Source: a virus (taxonomy: Duplodnaviria; Heunggongvirae; Uroviricota; Caudoviricetes). Taken from it: a stretch of 36,472 bases of DNA. Below, piece by piece: positions 1 through 36,472 of this stretch. Within the stretch, counting starts at the first letter, position 1; each line of letters starts with the position of its first letter. The position numbers and the translations under genes were made by a program. Location of the stretch: the IMG/VR virus record IMGVR_UViG_2700989508_000025; one strand, given 5' to 3'. The notes below the pieces were generated by a model. It saw nothing but the letters and a program-made list of their open reading frames with translations. It was not told the origin of the DNA and ran no database searches.

Positions 1-141
1 TTACTGCTTACACTGTAAGAACGCCGCAAACTCCGCTCCCCAGAAGCTCATCCGTATTTCGCACAGCGAACCGTGCAACATCCAGATGATGAGGATTGCC
101 GTCACGCAGAACGTGATGGCCGTAAGCGATTTTTGCGACAT
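1..141 (-). CDS. Hok/Gef-family-like small membrane toxin (46 aa), candidate type I toxin
   Basis: Minus-strand ORF below the track length cutoff: ATG at 139-141, TAA at 1-3. My translation is MSQKSLTAITFCVTAILIIWMLHGSLCEIRMSFWGAEFAAFLQCKQ: an N-terminal hydrophobic helix followed by C-E-I-R ... E-x-A-A-F, which matches the Hok/Gef pattern as I recall it. Fully overlapped by a longer out-of-frame ORF (8..241), as in mok/hok. Confidence 0.5.
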   Translation of the reverse strand: MSQKSLTAITFCVTAILIIWMLHGSLCEIRMSFWGAEFAAFLQCKQ

Positions 142-241
142 AGCACTTGCTCCTTTTCCGGAGAGGCGCTAACCTTTCACTTGTCAAGGTAATGCGGTTA
201 GGGCCTCGGTTAAACAGAAATGTTTTCCGGGGCCTTTCCAC
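8..241 (-). CDS. mok-like overlapping reading frame covering the hok-like ORF (candidate)
   Basis: 77-aa track ORF in a different frame that starts upstream of and overlaps almost all of the hok-like ORF, the arrangement described for mok/hok. No independent sequence evidence for function. Confidence 0.25.
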   Translation of the reverse strand: MERPRKTFLFNRGPNRITLTSERLAPLRKRSKCYVAKIAYGHHVLRDGNPHHLDVARFAVRNTDELLGSGVCGVLTV

Positions 242-331
242 ATCTGGCCTTCAGGTATTCCCTCCGACCATCAGCCGAAAGGCACCCGCGCGTAATCTAT
301 CTCTTTTTTGTTACTCCGGCAATTCTGCCTG

Positions 332-592
332 TTAATTTTGAGGTAAGGGCAAACTCATCTGATTGTTTCCTTTGTGTGAAGCTGGCAGTTCATGCCACGG
401 GATACCTTCTGAAGAGTGAGCGCCGGAGGCGTGTTTCGATGTGAATTTATGGAAAGCTTCCAGTGTTGAGAAGCATACGCCGCATTCTAGGTTGTTACAT
501 TGGTAATACTTTTGCCGCACAGTGTTTGAATCATTTTCCGGACGACTAGTGCGGATACGGGCAGATGCGCCACAAAGTGGACAACGGAACAT
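332..592 (-). CDS. ogr: Ogr/Delta-family zinc-finger late gene transcriptional activator
   Basis: 86-aa ORF starting MFRCPLCGASARIRTSR...YYQCNNLEC, i.e. a Cys4 finger (CxxC...CxxxxC) like P2 Ogr. Strong SD (AAGGGAGG) sits just upstream of the ATG at 592. Confidence 0.85.
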   Translation of the reverse strand: MFRCPLCGASARIRTSRPENDSNTVRQKYYQCNNLECGVCFSTLEAFHKFTSKHASGAHSSEGIPWHELPASHKGNNQMSLPLPQN

Positions 593-746
593 AGCGACCT
601 CCCTTACTGTGGTGCTTCCTCTATTCTAAGTTGTACTGATACAGATTCCAATTAACAGCTTGTCTTGTGTGAAAAGTGGAAGTTCACAATTGTGATAGCC
701 ATTACTAACGTTGTGATGTATTAGTCAACGGGAAACAAGGCATCTG

Positions 747-802: not shown

Positions 803-1117
803 GTGGTTGCTGATCATGAATATTTGTATTGGAAGATAATTGCAATGAGCGAAAGAGTGTTTGAGAAAGAACTATATTCTGAATGGGTTATACGCAATAG
901 TCTATATTGGATGACTCCGCTTACTCGATGGAAACTCCATGAAGACGTTTCCCACTGGATAATCTCTTTTGAAAACGATAATCCCAAATTCCTTTATGAA
1001 TTCGATAGGCTGCTTAATGATTACTCTTTGCGAGAAAAGCTACAGCATAAAACAGGGGCGTTGAGAGACTCTATTGTCCATAAAGTGCTTCGCAGTGTTG
1101 ATGAGAGGCTTTCATAA
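803..1117 (+). CDS. Small protein, first gene of the hxs-like operon (HxsD-like candidate)
   Basis: 104-aa ORF whose TAA stop overlaps the ATG of the next gene (1117). No recognisable motif; the assignment is by operon position only. Confidence 0.4.
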   Translation: MVADHEYLYWKIIAMSERVFEKELYSEWVIRNSLYWMTPLTRWKLHEDVSHWIISFENDNPKFLYEFDRLLNDYSLREKLQHKTGALRDSIVHKVLRSVDERLS

Positions 1118-2505
1118 TGGAATTGATGCCATTTAATTTTGACAGATTGCCTAATGGACAGGTGTTTATAAGCAACCTTGCAGGTTTTCATCATTTCATT
1201 GGTGAGCAAGACCTTATTGATCTTTCTGATGAGCGAATTAGTTCGGAGCAATCAAACGTGCTAGAAAGTAAGCTTTTCATAACCAGTGAAAGCTCATCTG
1301 CTATAACTCCCTATGCTTTAAGTTCTGCTTTTGCAAAACGATTGATGAATGAACTGGCTGTCAGGCCAATTTTCATGATTGTACCCACATTACGTTGTGA
1401 CCATACATGCAAGTATTGCCAGGTTAGTAGAGCTTCTGTTAATGCCTCAGGTTACGACCTAAATCCTGAGCTCATCCCCGATATTATTTCGGCTATTAAA
1501 AAACTATCAACGCCACCTTACAAAATAGAGATACAGGGTGGGGAGCCTCTCTTGCGGTTTGATTTAATTCAGAGCATCTATGATCAATGTGCTGAAACGC
1601 TGGGAAGAACCAATTTTGAGATGGTGGTGGCATCAAGTCTGTCCGTCTTGAATGAGGATATGATTGAATGGTCGAGAGACCGGAACATAACGTTCTCTGT
1701 GTCGCTTGATGGTGAGGAAGTTGTTCACAACAGTAATCGAATTCTTGGTCGTGGGCTTGCGTACAGTAGAACAGTGTCAGGGGTAGAGGCTATCAAACAC
1801 TCTTTAGGTGCTGGCCGCGTTGCAACGGTTACTACAGTTACTAAAGAGCTTATCAAACGTCCTGAATCGATTGTTCAGGCTCACTTGTCTCTTGGTCTCA
1901 AGGACATGTTTATCCGACCTGTTAGTCCCTATGGGTTTGCACAAAAAGCTTCTTTCACCTTTTCTATGGACGAATACTTCAGCTTCTATGCCTCGTTGAT
2001 AGATGAAATCCTTAAGATTAATAATGAAGGGATAAGGGTTGTGGAACATTCGGCCTCCATTCATCTGAAAAGGATCTTCAATCCCGGTTTTAGTGGTTAT
2101 GCGGATTTAAAGTCTCCAAGTGGAGTCGTGCTTAACAGTATTCTTTTCAATTATGACGGTCGAGTATATGGTAGCGATGAGAGCCGTATGTTGCAGAAGG
2201 TGAATCCTGAAACGGAGTTCAGTGCGGGTGAAGTTAAGACGCTATCATTTTCTGATAGTCCTTACTATAACGCAGTATTGAGTTCATCGTTCAATTTTGC
2301 TCTGCCAGGTTGTGATACATGTGCATATCAACCATTTTGTGGTTCAGATCCATGCCAGAACATAAGTGTACAGGGTGAGCCTGTCGGTGATAGGAGTCGT
2401 TCAACGTTTTGTCAATATCACAAGGGGATGTTCAGGTATCTGATGAACTGCATCTCAGAGGGTGGTTCGAAGGCTGAGATGCTAAAAGGATGGGCATATG
2501 TCTGA
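1117..2505 (+). CDS. Radical SAM enzyme with C-terminal SPASM-type Cys cluster (HxsB-like maturase candidate)
   Basis: 462 aa. CxxxCxxC motif in LRCDHTCKYCQ, Gly-rich IQGGEPLL, and a C-terminal Cys-rich segment PGCDTCAYQPFCGSDPCQ typical of SPASM domains. Confidence 0.75.
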   Translation: MELMPFNFDRLPNGQVFISNLAGFHHFIGEQDLIDLSDERISSEQSNVLESKLFITSESSSAITPYALSSAFAKRLMNELAVRPIFMIVPTLRCDHTCKYCQVSRASVNASGYDLNPELIPDIISAIKKLSTPPYKIEIQGGEPLLRFDLIQSIYDQCAETLGRTNFEMVVASSLSVLNEDMIEWSRDRNITFSVSLDGEEVVHNSNRILGRGLAYSRTVSGVEAIKHSLGAGRVATVTTVTKELIKRPESIVQAHLSLGLKDMFIRPVSPYGFAQKASFTFSMDEYFSFYASLIDEILKINNEGIRVVEHSASIHLKRIFNPGFSGYADLKSPSGVVLNSILFNYDGRVYGSDESRMLQKVNPETEFSAGEVKTLSFSDSPYYNAVLSSSFNFALPGCDTCAYQPFCGSDPCQNISVQGEPVGDRSRSTFCQYHKGMFRYLMNCISEGGSKAEMLKGWAYV

Positions 2506-3610
2506 GGTTATCAGGAACGATATCTTTCATTTTGCTTCTACAGAGAACGTGCCCACGGGGTTCTATCGGTTATGCAAACAAAAACCAGTGAACCCTTTAT
2601 TCTTTTTGCCCAATTTGCTAGTAGTTGCTGAAGGCAATAATGATGCCATTCCACCATGCTTTGATTTCTCTGTTATTAGCACTGAATTATTTGAGTCAAT
2701 TGAAGATGGAGATATTGGGATAATCAACAATGGCAATATGATACGCGTTATTCTGTCACGCAAAGCCAATCATAATACTGTCTTAGTTACGGAACGCTGC
2801 AATAACTTGTGTCTGTTTTGTTCGCAGCCACCAAAGAAAATAAATGATGACTGGCTACTTACCCAATCAGCTCTTGCTATAGCTTCATTTGGCTTGAACG
2901 GAGTTGTTGGGGTCAGCGGTGGTGAACCTTTGCTATATGGGGATGACTTCCTTCACTTCATTGATTTTATCATCGAGAATTCACCAGATACTGCTTTACA
3001 TGTTTTAACAAACGGACGCAAATTTGCTGATATCAACTTTACACAGGAAATGGCAAAGCGAAGCAAAAAGATCAAAATCACCTTTGGTATCCCGCTCTAC
3101 TCATCAAGACCACTTGTGCATGATCATCTGGTAGGGAGTGATGGCGCATTTAATGAAACGGTTAAAGGGTTAATCAATGCAGGAAACTTGGGGATTAATA
3201 TCGAACTTAGAGTTATTCCTACACTGGCTAACTATACCGAATTGGATGATATTGTAGAATTCGCTGGCCGTGTGTTCTCCAACATCAATCAGATTTCCCT
3301 TATGGGGTTGGAGCCTATCGGTTGGGCACGAAAAAACTGGTCCACCATCTTCATTGATCACAGTAGTTATAGTGAGAAAATAATCTCTGCCATAGACGCT
3401 GCATACAGGTCAGGCATACCTCTGACAATTTTTAATTATCCTTTGTGTTATCTTCCTGAAAGGGCTAGGGAGCTTGCTGTTCAGTCGATCTCTGATTGGA
3501 AAAATTACTATCCAAAAGAATGTGATGAATGTACTCAGAAGCCTTCCTGTGCTGGCTATTTCAGTTCCTCAAAAGGCCGTTTTCATCAATCACCGAGACC
3601 AATTTTATGA
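2498..3610 (+). CDS. Radical SAM enzyme (HxsC-like maturase candidate)
   Basis: 370 aa. CxxxCxxC in TERCNNLCLFCSQ, Gly-rich VSGGEPLL, and C-terminal Cys residues (CDECTQKPSCAGYF). Overlaps the upstream gene by 8 nt and the downstream gene by ATGA. Confidence 0.75.
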   Translation: MSEVIRNDIFHFASTENVPTGFYRLCKQKPVNPLFFLPNLLVVAEGNNDAIPPCFDFSVISTELFESIEDGDIGIINNGNMIRVILSRKANHNTVLVTERCNNLCLFCSQPPKKINDDWLLTQSALAIASFGLNGVVGVSGGEPLLYGDDFLHFIDFIIENSPDTALHVLTNGRKFADINFTQEMAKRSKKIKITFGIPLYSSRPLVHDHLVGSDGAFNETVKGLINAGNLGINIELRVIPTLANYTELDDIVEFAGRVFSNINQISLMGLEPIGWARKNWSTIFIDHSSYSEKIISAIDAAYRSGIPLTIFNYPLCYLPERARELAVQSISDWKNYYPKECDECTQKPSCAGYFSSSKGRFHQSPRPIL

Positions 3611-4242
3611 AAAAGTTTAATTTTGCTGCTCTACTTCCGGGATTTTTGGCTCTCAACAATTCTGTATGGGCAAGCGATTCATCTACAGGAGCGAGTGATT
3701 TACCTGGTATGACTCTTAATGAGCATGATTTAGTGATAGCTCCACTTAACACGGAAGTCCCATTTTATATCGCAGGGCATCGAAGCCATAGCTCTCATAG
3801 GAGCCATAGCTCTCATAGATCCTCATCAGGTGGTGGATACTATGGTGGAAGTACCCCCTATTATCCAAAAACATACAGCTCACCACGTTCATCTGGTTCT
3901 TCAAGTTCAGGTGCAAGTTCCTCATCGTCCTCTTCCTCGGTGCGTGCACTTCGTTCTAACGATAATAATAGAACCACTAACACGAGTTCTGTTGGAACTT
4001 CAGAGGTTAACCGTACGAGTAATGGGCTTGCTTCTGATGCAGAGAAACGTAAGCGATTGATTATGCGAGTTCAGTTCGCATTGCTGGACAGGGGATTTTA
4101 TAACGGAAATATTGACGGCATAATGGGGCCATCCACAAGGCTGTCTGTGAAAAATTACCGCATTGCGAATGGATTACCGATTCCTGCAACTGAAACACTC
4201 GACACTCAATTGTTAAATTCTTTGAATATATTAGCTCGCTAA
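3607..4242 (+). CDS. Secreted His-Xaa-Ser repeat protein with C-terminal peptidoglycan-binding-like domain (HxsA-like precursor candidate)
   Basis: ATG at 3607 overlaps the hxsC-like stop. N-terminal signal-peptide-like MKKFNFAALLPGFLALNNSVWA. Five consecutive H-x-S triplets (HRSHSSHRSHSSHRS), then a Gly/Tyr and Ser-rich low-complexity stretch. The C-terminus (RVQFALLDRGFYNGNIDGIMGPSTRLSVKNYRIANGLPIPATETLD) resembles the PG_binding_1 fold. Confidence 0.7.
   Translation: MKKFNFAALLPGFLALNNSVWASDSSTGASDLPGMTLNEHDLVIAPLNTEVPFYIAGHRSHSSHRSHSSHRSSSGGGYYGGSTPYYPKTYSSPRSSGSSSSGASSSSSSSSVRALRSNDNNRTTNTSSVGTSEVNRTSNGLASDAEKRKRLIMRVQFALLDRGFYNGNIDGIMGPSTRLSVKNYRIANGLPIPATETLDTQLLNSLNILAR
3784..3819 (+). 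repeat. Tandem 18-bp direct repeat (agccatagctctcatag + g, two copies) encoding the His-Xaa-Ser triplets
   Basis: Read directly from the sequence: 3784-3800 and 3802-3818 are identical 17-mers. Confidence 0.8.
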
Positions 4243-4406: not shown

Positions 4407-5510
4407 TCATTCTGCTATCCATTCCGGGATTTTTGCCTCAAGCTCAAGCTGCGTGGTAAAGCCGCTGTTATCAATGGTGTGCTCGGCTTTCGCAATAATC
4501 CAGTCCTGATTATCAATCTCGCTTTTAAAGCCTGTTACCGTGCCATGCATTTCGGGGTAGAGTTCTGCGCGTCCACGTGCCAGTGTGATGGAGAACGCTG
4601 CGGCTCCGCGTTGTAGCTGCTGCCACTTTGCCGCCGCTGCGCGTCTTGCTGCCTGCTCGTTCTGATAAGTCTTGCGTAACACAAACACATTGCCTTCCGC
4701 GCCTTCCATATAATCACCTTCACGGCTGCTGCTTTTCTCCTTTTTGGGTTTTGGCGGTTTACGGCGTTTCACGCTGACTTTTTTCTTTTTCCCGTAATTA
4801 AGATCAAGCCAGTAGGCGCGTACCCCCGTATACGCCTCGCGGTCAGCAATACGGAACTGATGGCGATCGCCGCTGCTGCGTGTAATGGCGAACGAGGGCA
4901 ACGGCTGGCCCTGTGCGTTCACGCCACCACCTGGCATGATGAATAACAGATTGCCGCTTTTTACTGTGGTGATTGCGCCCAGCATTTCCGCCATGCGCGT
5001 AAGGAAGGACATGTCGCTTTCTTCGGTCTGGTCGGCGTGGTCGATTTCGATATCCATCAGCATTTCGCTGATTTGCGGTTTCAGACCATACCGATGAGCG
5101 ATGGCGGATACCACACGCTCAACGGTCACATCATGCCAGGACACCTCACGTTTAACGTTAAATTCATCCCGAAAATCTGCGCTTCTGGCTGAAACAGTCA
5201 GCCTGTCCGGCGGTCCTTCGTGAGCGATTTCATCAACAATGTAAGTGCCTTTTTCTGTCAGCGGTTCTCCTTTCCAGCCAATGAGAACCGTCAGGCGCGC
5301 GCCCCGTGGCGGTAGCTGCAACTGACCATCCGCATCATCCAGCGTGATGGTGAGCTGGTCCGCTTCAAATCCCCGGTTGTCGGTCAGTGACAGGCTCATC
5401 AGGCGCTCTGCCACGCCTGACAGCGTTTTACCCTCCGCGAGAATATCAAAATCCGGCATTTTCACGGGGTCTGTGCCCTGACTGAGCAATTGCATGGTGG
5501 TGTCGGTCAT
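4407..5510 (-). CDS. D: Tail protein D (late control gene D family)
   Basis: Track ORF 4407..5642 trimmed to the ATG at 5510 (MTDTTMQLL...), which is preceded by GGGAGGG. Similarity to gpD recognised by eye. Carries a Lys/Pro-rich insert (GKKKKVSVKRRKPPKPKKEK). Confidence 0.8.
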   Translation of the reverse strand: MTDTTMQLLSQGTDPVKMPDFDILAEGKTLSGVAERLMSLSLTDNRGFEADQLTITLDDADGQLQLPPRGARLTVLIGWKGEPLTEKGTYIVDEIAHEGPPDRLTVSARSADFRDEFNVKREVSWHDVTVERVVSAIAHRYGLKPQISEMLMDIEIDHADQTEESDMSFLTRMAEMLGAITTVKSGNLLFIMPGGGVNAQGQPLPSFAITRSSGDRHQFRIADREAYTGVRAYWLDLNYGKKKKVSVKRRKPPKPKKEKSSSREGDYMEGAEGNVFVLRKTYQNEQAARRAAAAKWQQLQRGAAAFSITLARGRAELYPEMHGTVTGFKSEIDNQDWIIAKAEHTIDNSGFTTQLELEAKIPEWIAE

Positions 5511-5667
5511 CTGTTCCCTCCCTGTGCGGCATGGTCGCATGTGCGTGCGGAGGGGGTTACTGCTTTTTGTTGTCGCCGTGGCGGGAGAACGGCGCAGGAG
5601 TGAGATTACGCGCGTGGTGGGTGATGATTGTTGCCGAATCATTTAACGGATACAAGGGGCTGAAGCT

Positions 5668-6852
5668 ATGAGTGAAACTCGTTTTCATGGTGCCCGTGTT
5701 ACGGAAAGTACCGACCTGGTAACAGCGATTAATGATGTTGATTCCAGTGTTATCGGTATCGTGGCAACGGCGGATGATGCGGACGCGGAGCTGTTCCCGC
5801 TGAACAAGCCCACACTGCTGACCCGCGTCAATGACGTGCTGGGAAAATGCGGGACAACGGGGACGCTTTATCGTGCGCTTAAGGCCATTGCAGACCAGGT
5901 GAGCACAAAGGTGATCGTCGTTCGCGTGGCTGAACACAAAGAAGAAGACGGAAAGACGCAGGATCAACTGGTTATCGGTGGTTCTGAATCTGACGGCAGC
6001 TATACGGGGATGTATGCGCTGCTTGTTGCAGAGCAGGATGAAAGCATCGGATACCGTCCGCGTATTCTGGCCGCGCCGGAGCTGGATACGGAGGCGGTGA
6101 CAAAATCCCTGTGCGTGATTGCGGGTAAACTGCGCGCGTTTGTGTATGCCTCATGTCATGGCTGTGACACGATGGCTGATGCGATTACCTACCGCCAGAA
6201 ATTCAACGAACGTGAGGTGATGCTCTTATGGCCGGACTTCATCGCCTACAACCCGAAAAGTGGCAAAAACGAAACGTTCCCCGTGCCTGCCTATGCGTGC
6301 GGCCTTCGTGCGTACATTGACCATGAGCAGGGATGGCACAAATCACTCTCCAACGTTCCGGTTAAGAATGTGCTGGGGATGTCGAGGCATGTGTTCTGGT
6401 CGTTGCAGGCCGAAGACAGTGATGCCAACAGCCTCAACAACAAAGAAATCACGACCATTATTCGTCGCAACGGGTTCCGCTTCTGGGGCAACCGCACACC
6501 GGAAACGAACGCCTACATCTTTGAGGTGTATACCCGAACCGCACAGGTGCTGGCTGATTCAATTGCGGAAGCGCAGTTTGAAACCATCGACAGTCCACTG
6601 ACGCCTGCGAACGTGAAAGATGTTATCAGTGCCATCAGGGCAAAACTGGATTCACTGGTTACTGCCGGGAAACTGATTGGGGCGTCGTGCTGGTATGACG
6701 TGGTGGATAACGGCACCACGGATTTACGTCAGGGGCGTGTGCGTATTCGCTACAAATATACGCCCGTTCCGCCACTGGAAGACATGGAGCTTTACCAGAC
6801 GTTTACTGATGAATTCTTTGGTCCCGCATTTGCGGTGCTGGGAGGTGCCTGA
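5668..6852 (+). CDS. FI: Contractile tail sheath protein FI
   Basis: 394 aa, the size of P2 FI (about 396 aa), followed immediately by the tube gene. Sheath-like sequence recognised by eye. Confidence 0.85.
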   Translation: MSETRFHGARVTESTDLVTAINDVDSSVIGIVATADDADAELFPLNKPTLLTRVNDVLGKCGTTGTLYRALKAIADQVSTKVIVVRVAEHKEEDGKTQDQLVIGGSESDGSYTGMYALLVAEQDESIGYRPRILAAPELDTEAVTKSLCVIAGKLRAFVYASCHGCDTMADAITYRQKFNEREVMLLWPDFIAYNPKSGKNETFPVPAYACGLRAYIDHEQGWHKSLSNVPVKNVLGMSRHVFWSLQAEDSDANSLNNKEITTIIRRNGFRFWGNRTPETNAYIFEVYTRTAQVLADSIAEAQFETIDSPLTPANVKDVISAIRAKLDSLVTAGKLIGASCWYDVVDNGTTDLRQGRVRIRYKYTPVPPLEDMELYQTFTDEFFGPAFAVLGGA

Positions 6853-35494: not shown

Positions 35495-36472
35495 ATGAGC
35501 ATAAAATCAATTCCGGGAGGGTATCTTCTTGACATGCGCCCTGAGGGGCGTAAAGGCAAACGCATTCGCAAAAAATTTAAAACGAAATCGGATGCAGTTT
35601 TATATGAGCGGTGGGTGCTGGCGCAACAGCATAACAATGAGTGGAAAGGAAACTCTATTGATCGCCGTCCTCTGTCAGTGCTTATTGACTTGTGGTGGAA
35701 ATACCACGGCCAGCTAATGAAGTCAGGGCATAACACGCGCCTTAAATTGCTGCGCTTGAGTGAAGCAATGGATGACCCGTGCGTGCATAAACTTAATACA
35801 ACGATGCTCACCGAGCTACGTGTGTCCAGGATAGAGCAGGGGATACAGCCCAGCACCATAAATCGAGAGATTGGGGCGTTAAGCGCGATGTTTACCGCAC
35901 TCATCTCATCCGGCCATTTTCTTAACGATAACCCCGTTCAAGGCCTTAAAGGAATGAAGGTTAACGAGCGCGAAATGGGATATCTGAGTAAGTCTGAATG
36001 TGTTCAGTTGCTGGATGCACTGGCTGAAAATCCCGATGAACGACTGGCTGTCGAAATCCTTCTGTCGACCGGGGCGCGATGGGGAGAGGTAGCGGCACTG
36101 GAGCAGCGCCGTGTTCTTCATTGTCGAATCACTTTTTCAAAAACAAAGAACAGTAAAAACCGTACCGTCCCAATCTCCGAAGATTTGTTTGAAAAGATCA
36201 AAAAACGGGGCGGGAAACAGGTGTTTCCGACGCTGGATTATCCATTGGTTCGCGATGTCATCAAAACGGTCGCACCTGATGTTCCTGATGGCCAGGCTGT
36301 TCATGCGCTGCGCCACACCTTCGCCAGTCATTTCATGATGAACGGCGGCAATATTCTGACGCTCCAGAAAATTCTGGGGCACGCAAAGATTCAGACAACA
36401 ATGATTTATGCCCATCTTGCGCCGGATTACCTGCAGGATGCGGTGAGATTTAATCCGCTAGGAGGTGCTTAA
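35495..36472 (+). CDS. int: Tyrosine integrase (P2 Int-like)
   Basis: Track ORF trimmed to MSIKSIPGGYLLDMRPEGRKGKRIRKKFKTKSDA, which parallels the P2 Int N-terminus. C-terminal catalytic region HALRHTFASHFMMNGGNILTLQKILGHAKIQTTMIYAHL carries the R...HxxR...Y signature. Stop codon is the last triplet of the window. Confidence 0.9.
   Translation: MSIKSIPGGYLLDMRPEGRKGKRIRKKFKTKSDAVLYERWVLAQQHNNEWKGNSIDRRPLSVLIDLWWKYHGQLMKSGHNTRLKLLRLSEAMDDPCVHKLNTTMLTELRVSRIEQGIQPSTINREIGALSAMFTALISSGHFLNDNPVQGLKGMKVNEREMGYLSKSECVQLLDALAENPDERLAVEILLSTGARWGEVAALEQRRVLHCRITFSKTKNSKNRTVPISEDLFEKIKKRGGKQVFPTLDYPLVRDVIKTVAPDVPDGQAVHALRHTFASHFMMNGGNILTLQKILGHAKIQTTMIYAHLAPDYLQDAVRFNPLGGA

Follow-up and report, generated by a model that had tools for sequence, protein, structure and literature searches.

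A probable hok/sok cassette lacking a conserved mok frame at the ogr-proximal end of a P88-like Escherichia coli prophage

The tailed-phage sequence examined here (Caudoviricetes; IMG/VR record IMGVR_UViG_2700989508_000025; 36,472 nucleotides, hereafter "the window") begins, on its minus strand, with a small toxin locus that lies next to the late transcription activator gene ogr. The locus is very probably a hok/sok cassette of known type, a moron situated between ogr and the attachment site (att) of a P88-like (Xuanwuvirus, P2-like) prophage of Escherichia coli, and consisting of a Hok toxin gene, an mRNA that is predicted to close by pairing of its tac and fbi elements, and a predicted Sok antisense RNA, with no conserved mok. 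It is a real and ordinary locus, already annotated and already sampled experimentally by others; what the analysis adds concerns the mRNA leader, the overlapping reading frame, and the position of the cassette within the prophage.

The toxin gene

1..141, minus strand: hok coding sequence (CDS) with an ATG start, encoding a 46-aa Hok/Gef toxin (open reading frame [ORF] list, Pfam, PHROG, RefSeq, survey entry 72_1621)

The 46-aa product is a Hok-family membrane toxin. Its sequence, MSQKSLTAITFCVTAILIIWMLHGSLCEIRMSFWGAEFAAFLQCKQ, has the traits on which the original prediction had based a Hok-like assignment, a transmembrane helix and the patterns C-E-I-R and E-x-A-A-F: residues 6-22 are hydrophobic, LCEIR occupies residues 26-30, and EFAAF residues 37-41. 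The proposed search with a Hok/Gef model bears the assignment out; the Pfam family PF01848 (HOK_GEF) matches with 29.9 bits against a gathering cut-off of 22 (E 4.1e-7; peptide residues 7-44 on profile positions 5-42 of 42), and PHROG 251 ("MokW-like host killing") matches across the full length of 46 aa (E 1.3e-22). The top NCBIfam match was the HokA model; the corresponding HokA equivalog (NF007290) was rejected, since its 34 bits compare with a curated cut-off of 89, and the peptide is a member of the Hok family but not HokA. RefSeq lists the gene as WP_000078916.1, "Hok/Gef family protein", in the 100% identical copy carried by E. coli O26:H11 str. 11368.

Peptide and coding DNA are identical to entry 72_1621 (construct LRP137) of "high-abundance cluster" 72, a cluster at 60% identity, in Table S2 of a published Hok survey, with no difference at the protein level (Escalera-Maurer et al., bioRxiv 10.1101/2025.08.07.668861). 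The sequence logo of that survey identifies M1, C16, T18, L30, C31, E32, and E41 as conserved in >80% of Hok peptides (bioRxiv 10.1101/2025.08.07.668861); all seven are matched here by M1, C12, T14, L26, C27, E28, and E37, with a constant offset of -4. According to the survey text, entry 72_1621 is toxic on arabinose-induced overexpression, and the only non-toxic entries among the tested Hok homologs were 19_179, 60_1482, and 69_1540 (bioRxiv 10.1101/2025.08.07.668861). The toxicity assay proposed for the 46-aa ORF has thus in effect been carried out, and the identical peptide is not among the three non-toxic entries.

Comparative evidence was drawn from 74 distinct cassettes collected from IMG/VR, phage, and plasmid records, with IMG/VR being scanned for a 20-nt tac pattern; hok is intact in 60 distinct variants that encode 20 different peptides. 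The hok frame shows a median ratio of nonsynonymous to synonymous substitution rates (dN/dS) of 0.22, indicating purifying selection, and its length stays within 44-48 codons in 60 of 61 leader variants.

The hok mRNA leader and its antisense RNA

Only window positions 1-287 of the approximately 406-nt hok mRNA, together with its promoter, lie inside the window; the 3' third, with the fbi element and the terminator, lies outside, and was read from the identical O26:H11 11368 copy (L001 in the coordinates below) and its relatives. The elements of the leader and of the antisense unit are listed below, with mRNA positions counted from the presumed 5' end.

150..153, minus strand: hok Shine-Dalgarno (SD) sequence GGAG, mRNA nt 135-138, 8 nt before the ATG (sequence reading, folds)
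160..167, minus strand: dcb-like box GCCUCUCC, mRNA nt 121-128 (folds, pair counts on the 74 variants)
203..207, minus strand: GAGGC box, mRNA nt 81-85, positional equivalent of the mok SD of plasmid R1 (Rfam alignment, comparison with the hokC leader, folds)
229..239, minus strand: ucb-like box GGAAAGGCCCC, mRNA nt 49-59, predicted to cover GAGG in the full-length RNA and to pair with tac in the truncated RNA (folds)
273..287, minus strand: tac element GGGUGCCUUUCGGCU, the 5' end of the hok mRNA, with a presumed +1 at 287 (start of the RF01794 match, folds)
294..322, minus strand: putative hok promoter, -35 TTGCCG (322..317), 17-nt spacer, -10 TAGATT (299..294) (sequence reading)
147..175, plus strand: putative sok promoter, -35 TTGCTC (147-152), 17-nt spacer, -10 TAACCT (170-175) (sequence reading)
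~183..240, plus strand: predicted Sok RNA with presumed ends, a single-stranded 5' tail of ~17 nt followed by a 10-bp hairpin (200-236) (fold)

The Rfam family RF01794 matches the leader at 287..128 on the minus strand over the full model (1-157; E 1.5e-9) with 48.3 bits, against a family gathering score of 59; the P88 copy scores 47.9, a copy from a Shiga toxin (Stx)-converting phage 33.1, and K-12 hokC 118.3. This family is named "sok", and it matches the hok-sense leader strand; on the K-12 chromosome (L004, 752-1054) sokC is annotated on the opposite strand. Downstream of the window, the O26:H11 copy continues with a GC-rich hairpin just past the stop codon, with the sequence AAGGCACCC that is complementary to the 5' end GGGUGCCUU, and with an intrinsic terminator at L001 3914-3887.

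Folding of the full-length 406-nt RNA, from position 287 to the terminator, yields -179 kcal/mol (z -9.24), and nt 1-15 pair with nt 337-352, tac with fbi, in both the minimum-free-energy and the centroid structure; the 5' fold-back that the original prediction had suggested looking for is in this sense recovered by prediction. In the closed fold, GGCC(CC) at nt 54-59 pairs with GAGG (nt 81-84), and CUCC, nt 125-128 of the dcb-like box, pairs with the hok GGAG. When the RNA is truncated after the 3' hairpin (ends at 318-334), it is predicted to refold, with nt 1-11 pairing with nt 49-59, and GAGGC (nt 81-85) with GCCUC (nt 121-125 of the same dcb-like box); a hairpin that sequesters tac in the nascent transcript is predicted as well. 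Across the 74 variants, pairs specific to the closed form are paired in 88% of cases versus 32-46% for slid partners, and the tac/fbi helix in 93.3%; in the long-range helix adjoining tac/fbi, compensatory changes from GC to AU occur in 14 sequences and from AU to GC in 22. Pairs specific to the open form are paired in 94% versus 30-52% for slid partners, with changes on both sides at 10 pairs, and pairing in the tac/ucb helix reaches 98.6% of cells. These models predict that the full-length mRNA closes by tac/fbi pairing and switches to tac/ucb and GAGG/dcb pairing after loss of its 3' end.

The -10 box of the putative hok promoter lies 6 nt before the +1, and its hexamers are kept in nine copies whose flanks further upstream are unrelated. 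On the plus strand, the search for an antisense Sok-like promoter around 150..330 suggested by the original prediction leads to a plausible placement of both the promoter and the RNA. The bases complementary to the putative sok promoter are invariant or nearly so in the 74 variants, and its layout resembles the R1 sok promoter, which is taken here to be TTGCGC-17-TATCCT. The predicted Sok RNA folds with -24.1 kcal/mol (z -3.7 to -4.2), would be complementary to hok mRNA nt 48-105, and is similar in size and position to the annotated 59-nt sokC; its loop-proximal hairpin pairs covary. The loop of the GAGGC/GCCUC hairpin, which contains UUGA, a YUNR-type sequence, is matched by complementary bases at the start of the predicted Sok. 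On this basis a Sok antisense unit is predicted for the plus strand.

The overlapping frame and the control of hok

8..241, minus strand: overlapping 77-aa ORF with a GTG start, the "mok" of the original prediction, probably not a gene (ORF list; closed or start-less in most relatives)

The original prediction described the hok frame as completely overlapped by this out-of-frame ORF, in mimicry of mok/hok. The ORF and its frame are as placed, and the offset is that of R1 mok/hok, with the hok ATG beginning at codon position 2; the overlap is near-complete, with hok bases 1-7 lying outside. The mimicry does not hold up in the relatives. The 77-aa product has no match in Pfam or NCBIfam, its frame has a dN/dS of 1.84 versus 0.22 for hok, and an early stop interrupts the overlapping frame in 33 of 44 CDS variants. 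In 37 of the 60 intact-hok variants, including the P88 and Stx-phage copies, no ORF starting with ATG, GTG, or TTG reaches the hok SD in any frame, in a search whose three-frame script recovers hokC/mokC as a control; 39 of the 60 have no start codon, near-cognate codons included, in the 77-aa frame upstream of hok. Of the nine copies fetched first, the O26 copy, identical to the window, is the only one with a start upstream of hok in this frame; the P88 and Stx-phage copies have stops and no start in it. Where leader starts are present, their positions vary (nt 17, 45, 47, 72, and 101-103).

In R1, the mok AUG follows its GAGG SD by about 8 nt, and mok translation must reach the hok SD. K-12 likewise has a clear mokC, in frame with hokC, with its ATG 8 nt after GAGG, whereas the cluster-72 cassettes have no start codon past GAGG at this place. 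A fixed frame of mok relative to hok was considered and rejected; K-12 mokC is in frame with hokC and starts 57 nt upstream, R1 mok is out of frame, and the frame of mok is therefore not fixed within the family. Judged by sequence comparison, this Hok cluster has not conserved a mok leader ORF, and the 77-aa frame is most likely an accident of this particular leader variant. A literature search found no paper describing mok-less hok loci; the Hok survey deliberately left mok, Sok, and mRNA structure unanalysed (bioRxiv 10.1101/2025.08.07.668861).

A scheme for the control of hok can be outlined from the predicted structures and from analogy with R1. The weak promoter at 322..294 would produce an mRNA of ~406 nt starting at 287, as predicted with comparative support. 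In the full-length RNA, tac would pair with fbi ~340 nt downstream, just outside the window, and both the GAGG box and the hok SD would be paired. Slow 3' trimming would, as in R1, remove fbi; tac would then pair with ucb (239..229) and GAGGC (207..203) with GCCUC (167..163), giving a form that may be translatable and sensitive to Sok. Sok, transcribed from the plus strand (promoter 147-175, RNA ~183-240), would pair with leader nt 48-105 and silence or destroy the mRNA for as long as it is made. Translation of hok would probably begin directly at its own GGAG once the anti-SD has been displaced. The elements would thus form a relay: CUCC covers GGAG in the closed RNA, GAGGC pulls GCCUC off in the truncated RNA, and Sok, bound to nt 48-105, returns the anti-SD to the SD. 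By this account, cluster-72 cassettes on P88-like prophages, Stx phages, and some IncI/IncF plasmids may be naturally mok-less; GAGGC would be kept only as an RNA switch that pulls the anti-SD GCCUCUCC off the SD, and Sok would block this relay and bring about RNase III cleavage instead of blocking mok translation. The account is a tentative one, which may well turn out to be wrong.

As a caveat, several observations weigh against this scheme and against parts of the cassette model. The hok SD has an unpaired probability of 0.00 in the full-length RNA, of 0.00-0.34 in truncated RNAs (0.10 in the window variant), and of 0.00 with the Sok target blocked, and ensemble calculations predict no opening of the SD in three of nine variants, so that they lend direct exposure weak support. 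The window variant has an in-frame GTG (nt 47) and TTG (nt 101), and a lineage-specific mok is accordingly possible. The RF01794 score falls short of the gathering score of its family; most helices are near-invariant among close relatives, and, with the tested structures taken from one aligned sequence, the difference from the slid controls is exaggerated. The fbi element and the terminator are seen in the O26:H11 copy and its relatives, not in the window. Both promoters were placed by position and conservation only and match the sigma-70 consensus poorly, at 8 of 12 bases for hok and 6 of 12 for sok; a sigma-70 scan reported neither, with the hok promoter just under its threshold. The predicted Sok hairpin is followed by only three U, and the +1, the ends of Sok, and the 3' processing of the cassette are all inferred positions or events.

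The main competitor to a cassette with no conserved mok is a canonical three-gene hok/mok/sok locus, in which a working mok, either the full 77-aa ORF or a shorter form initiated at the TTG at nt 101, opens the hok ribosome binding site as in R1. The ORF is real, its frame is R1-like, GAAGG precedes its GTG by 6 nt, 20 to 23 of the 60 variants retain in this frame a leader ORF extending to the hok SD, and the GAGG box, the equivalent of the R1 mok SD, is conserved. The conservation of this box can be attributed to its RNA pairings in the closed and open folds, and the counts of variants without a leader ORF or even a near-cognate start, the missing start 8 nt after GAGG with starts at variable positions elsewhere, and the high dN/dS, early stops, and missing family match of the 77-aa frame make a working mok unlikely. 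It is more improbable still that the locus is a decayed, silent hok relic, comparable to several chromosomal hok loci of K-12, and as such unexpressed, unregulated, and useless to the phage. Without the canonical mok start, hok might no longer be translatable, both promoters are weak by consensus, and truly decayed relatives do exist, such as an Escherichia albertii plasmid copy with ATG-TAG and a deletion; against this stand the purifying selection on hok and its stable length, the toxicity reported for the expressed peptide in the survey, the retention of promoter hexamers, tac, ucb, GAGG, dcb, fbi, and terminator in plasmid, Stx-phage, and P2-like contexts alike, and the spread of the cassette to many different mobile elements. 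The notion that the ORFs arose by chance in a non-coding arm of the attachment site, with no toxin gene at all, draws on their shortness and on a location at the very edge of a predicted prophage, the expected place of an attP arm; it is refuted, with hardly any probability left to it, by highly significant HMM, covariance-model, and fold statistics, and by an att core that lies elsewhere.

Prophage setting, relatives, and significance

332..592, minus strand: ogr/delta-type late transcription activator gene, 86 aa, a neighbour outside the cassette (Pfam PF04606, RefSeq)

The hok/sok cassette does adjoin ogr, as originally proposed; the neighbouring product is an Ogr/Delta zinc finger protein (PF04606, 52.3 bits). 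The ogr stop codon lies 10 nt before the hok -35 box, and a terminator scan reported no terminator-like site in the gap between ogr and hok. The cassette itself measures ~430 bp, as the homology common to IncI1/IncF plasmids, Stx phages, and other prophages spans approximately L001 3880-4309, equivalent to window positions -120 to 309; it is bounded by the -35 box at one end and the terminator at the other.

Over its first 4.7 kb, the window matches the chromosome of E. coli O26:H11 str. 11368 with 100% identity; there the prophage is inserted between ihfA and btuC. Full identity with this prophage does not extend throughout, since it falls to 98% at the integrase end and the two are of different length. 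Comparison with the ihfA-btuC region of K-12 identifies the att core as a 25-bp exact direct repeat, GGCCGCTCTGCGGCCTTTTTTCTTT, at L001 3713-3737 and L012 4490-4514; it coincides with the intrinsic terminator of ihfA, and integration regenerates this terminator on the ihfA side. The original prediction had expected attachment-site sequence at 1-331. In the identical O26:H11 copy the core lies at window-equivalent positions -287..-263, beyond the cassette terminator by ~145 nt, and the whole window contains no copy of the 25-bp core. The order at the ogr-proximal end of P88-type prophages is therefore ogr, hok/sok cassette, an arm of ~145 nt, and the 25-bp att core. Both ends of the window fall exactly on stop codons, that of hok at position 1 and that of the integrase gene at 36472; it is a prophage segment cut at gene boundaries. 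The start is shared with at least 12 prophage contigs of IMG/VR, in which the tac motif occupies 268-287 of the minus strand. In prophage predictions trimmed to gene ends, the fbi element, the terminator, and both att sites are therefore lost.

On the other side of ogr, between this gene and tail gene D, a four-gene His-Xaa-Ser system (hxsD, hxsB, hxsC, and hxsA by their RefSeq names) occupies positions 845-4242 on the plus strand; its products are two radical-SAM maturases and a His-Xaa-Ser repeat protein, and PADLOC finds weak generic radical-SAM (pVip) similarity only. Phage P88 aligns to window positions 1-632 and 4410-6407 only, and this gap marks the 3.8-kb hxs block as variable cargo at the junction of ogr and tail gene D.

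The cassette is widely distributed. At least 80% of a 700-bp ogr-hok query is contained in 1179 of 5426 complete E. coli genomes, and gp52 of the P2-like phage P88 (Xuanwuvirus), which according to the P88 paper was induced from E. coli strain K88, represents the same cassette with 94% identity. Stx-converting phages (for example, Shigella phage 75/02 Stx, L005 1500-1640, and similar Stx2 phages) carry an 83% identical cluster-72 cassette, survey entry 72_1589, beside lom. Tandem cluster-72 cassettes occur on two IMG/VR contigs (L029 4318-4732 and 5040-5454; L100 5545-5959 and 6000-6414), 455-720 nt apart and in the same orientation, and all four have distinct DNA sequences. The decayed copy on the E. 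albertii plasmid pEA5_1 (L009 165-579) has TAG as hok codon 2, a 16-nt deletion in the CDS, and a disrupted 3' hairpin; a shorter "hok/gef family protein" is nevertheless annotated at this place in RefSeq.

Among characterized systems, hok/mok/sok (parB) of plasmid R1 shares the Hok-family toxin, an mRNA of ~400 nt, tac/fbi closure, and the switch to tac/ucb and GAGG/dcb after 3' loss that is predicted here; a stable hairpin at the predicted truncated 3' end, an antisense promoter that overlaps the hok SD region, and an antisense RNA of one single-stranded 5' tail and one hairpin are further predicted likenesses. It differs in the length of Hok (46 aa here versus 52 in R1) and of the leader (146 nt versus ~173), in the start codon after the GAGG box and the conserved mok ORF that are missing here, and in residing on a plasmid and not on a P2-like prophage. 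At the DNA level, R1 is too dissimilar for blastn, and every plasmid match, at 74-97% identity, is annotated only as Hok/Gef or ogr. The hokC/mokC/sokC locus of K-12 served as the annotated reference for the size and position of Sok and for the orientation of RF01794.

Another hok/sok cassette on an E. coli prophage, hokW-sokW of the Stx2 prophage Sp5, is the only prophage-borne hok with a demonstrated phage-related role; on induction, Sok falls, Hok appears ahead of endolysin, and about twice as much phage is released (Takada et al., 2021, PMC8621323). The present locus was considered as hokW-sokW, and this was rejected since HokW is a distinct protein; it is HokD-like and has 51 aa, with a cloning primer that encodes MKQQKAM (PMC8621323), and the cluster-72 Hok differs from it in N-terminus and length. 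In Stx phages the cluster-72 cassette has a site of its own, beside lom. The label "MokW-like" on P88 gp52 and on the 46-aa ORFs of Stx phages derives from the family name of PHROG 251 and is not evidence of identity. As a functional model for a prophage-borne hok, hokW-sokW nonetheless offers the best analogy, and the likeliest role of the cassette for the phage would be prophage addiction or stabilisation, help in lysis and release of the kind demonstrated for hokW-sokW, or exclusion of other phages.

The locus has little value as a discovery; its gene has a RefSeq annotation and a place in a named phage protein family, is found together with ogr in about one-fifth of complete E. coli genomes, and encodes a peptide that has already been tested. 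What is gained is an ogr-proximal end that can be cleanly annotated in P88-type prophages, and a warning that prophage predictions trimmed to gene ends slice the cassette in two. A minor question is raised as well, that of mok-independent control of hok; two-thirds of the variants in this cluster are devoid of a mok-type leader ORF and yet keep every element of the RNA switch, by which the textbook requirement for mok would not be universal in the Hok family.

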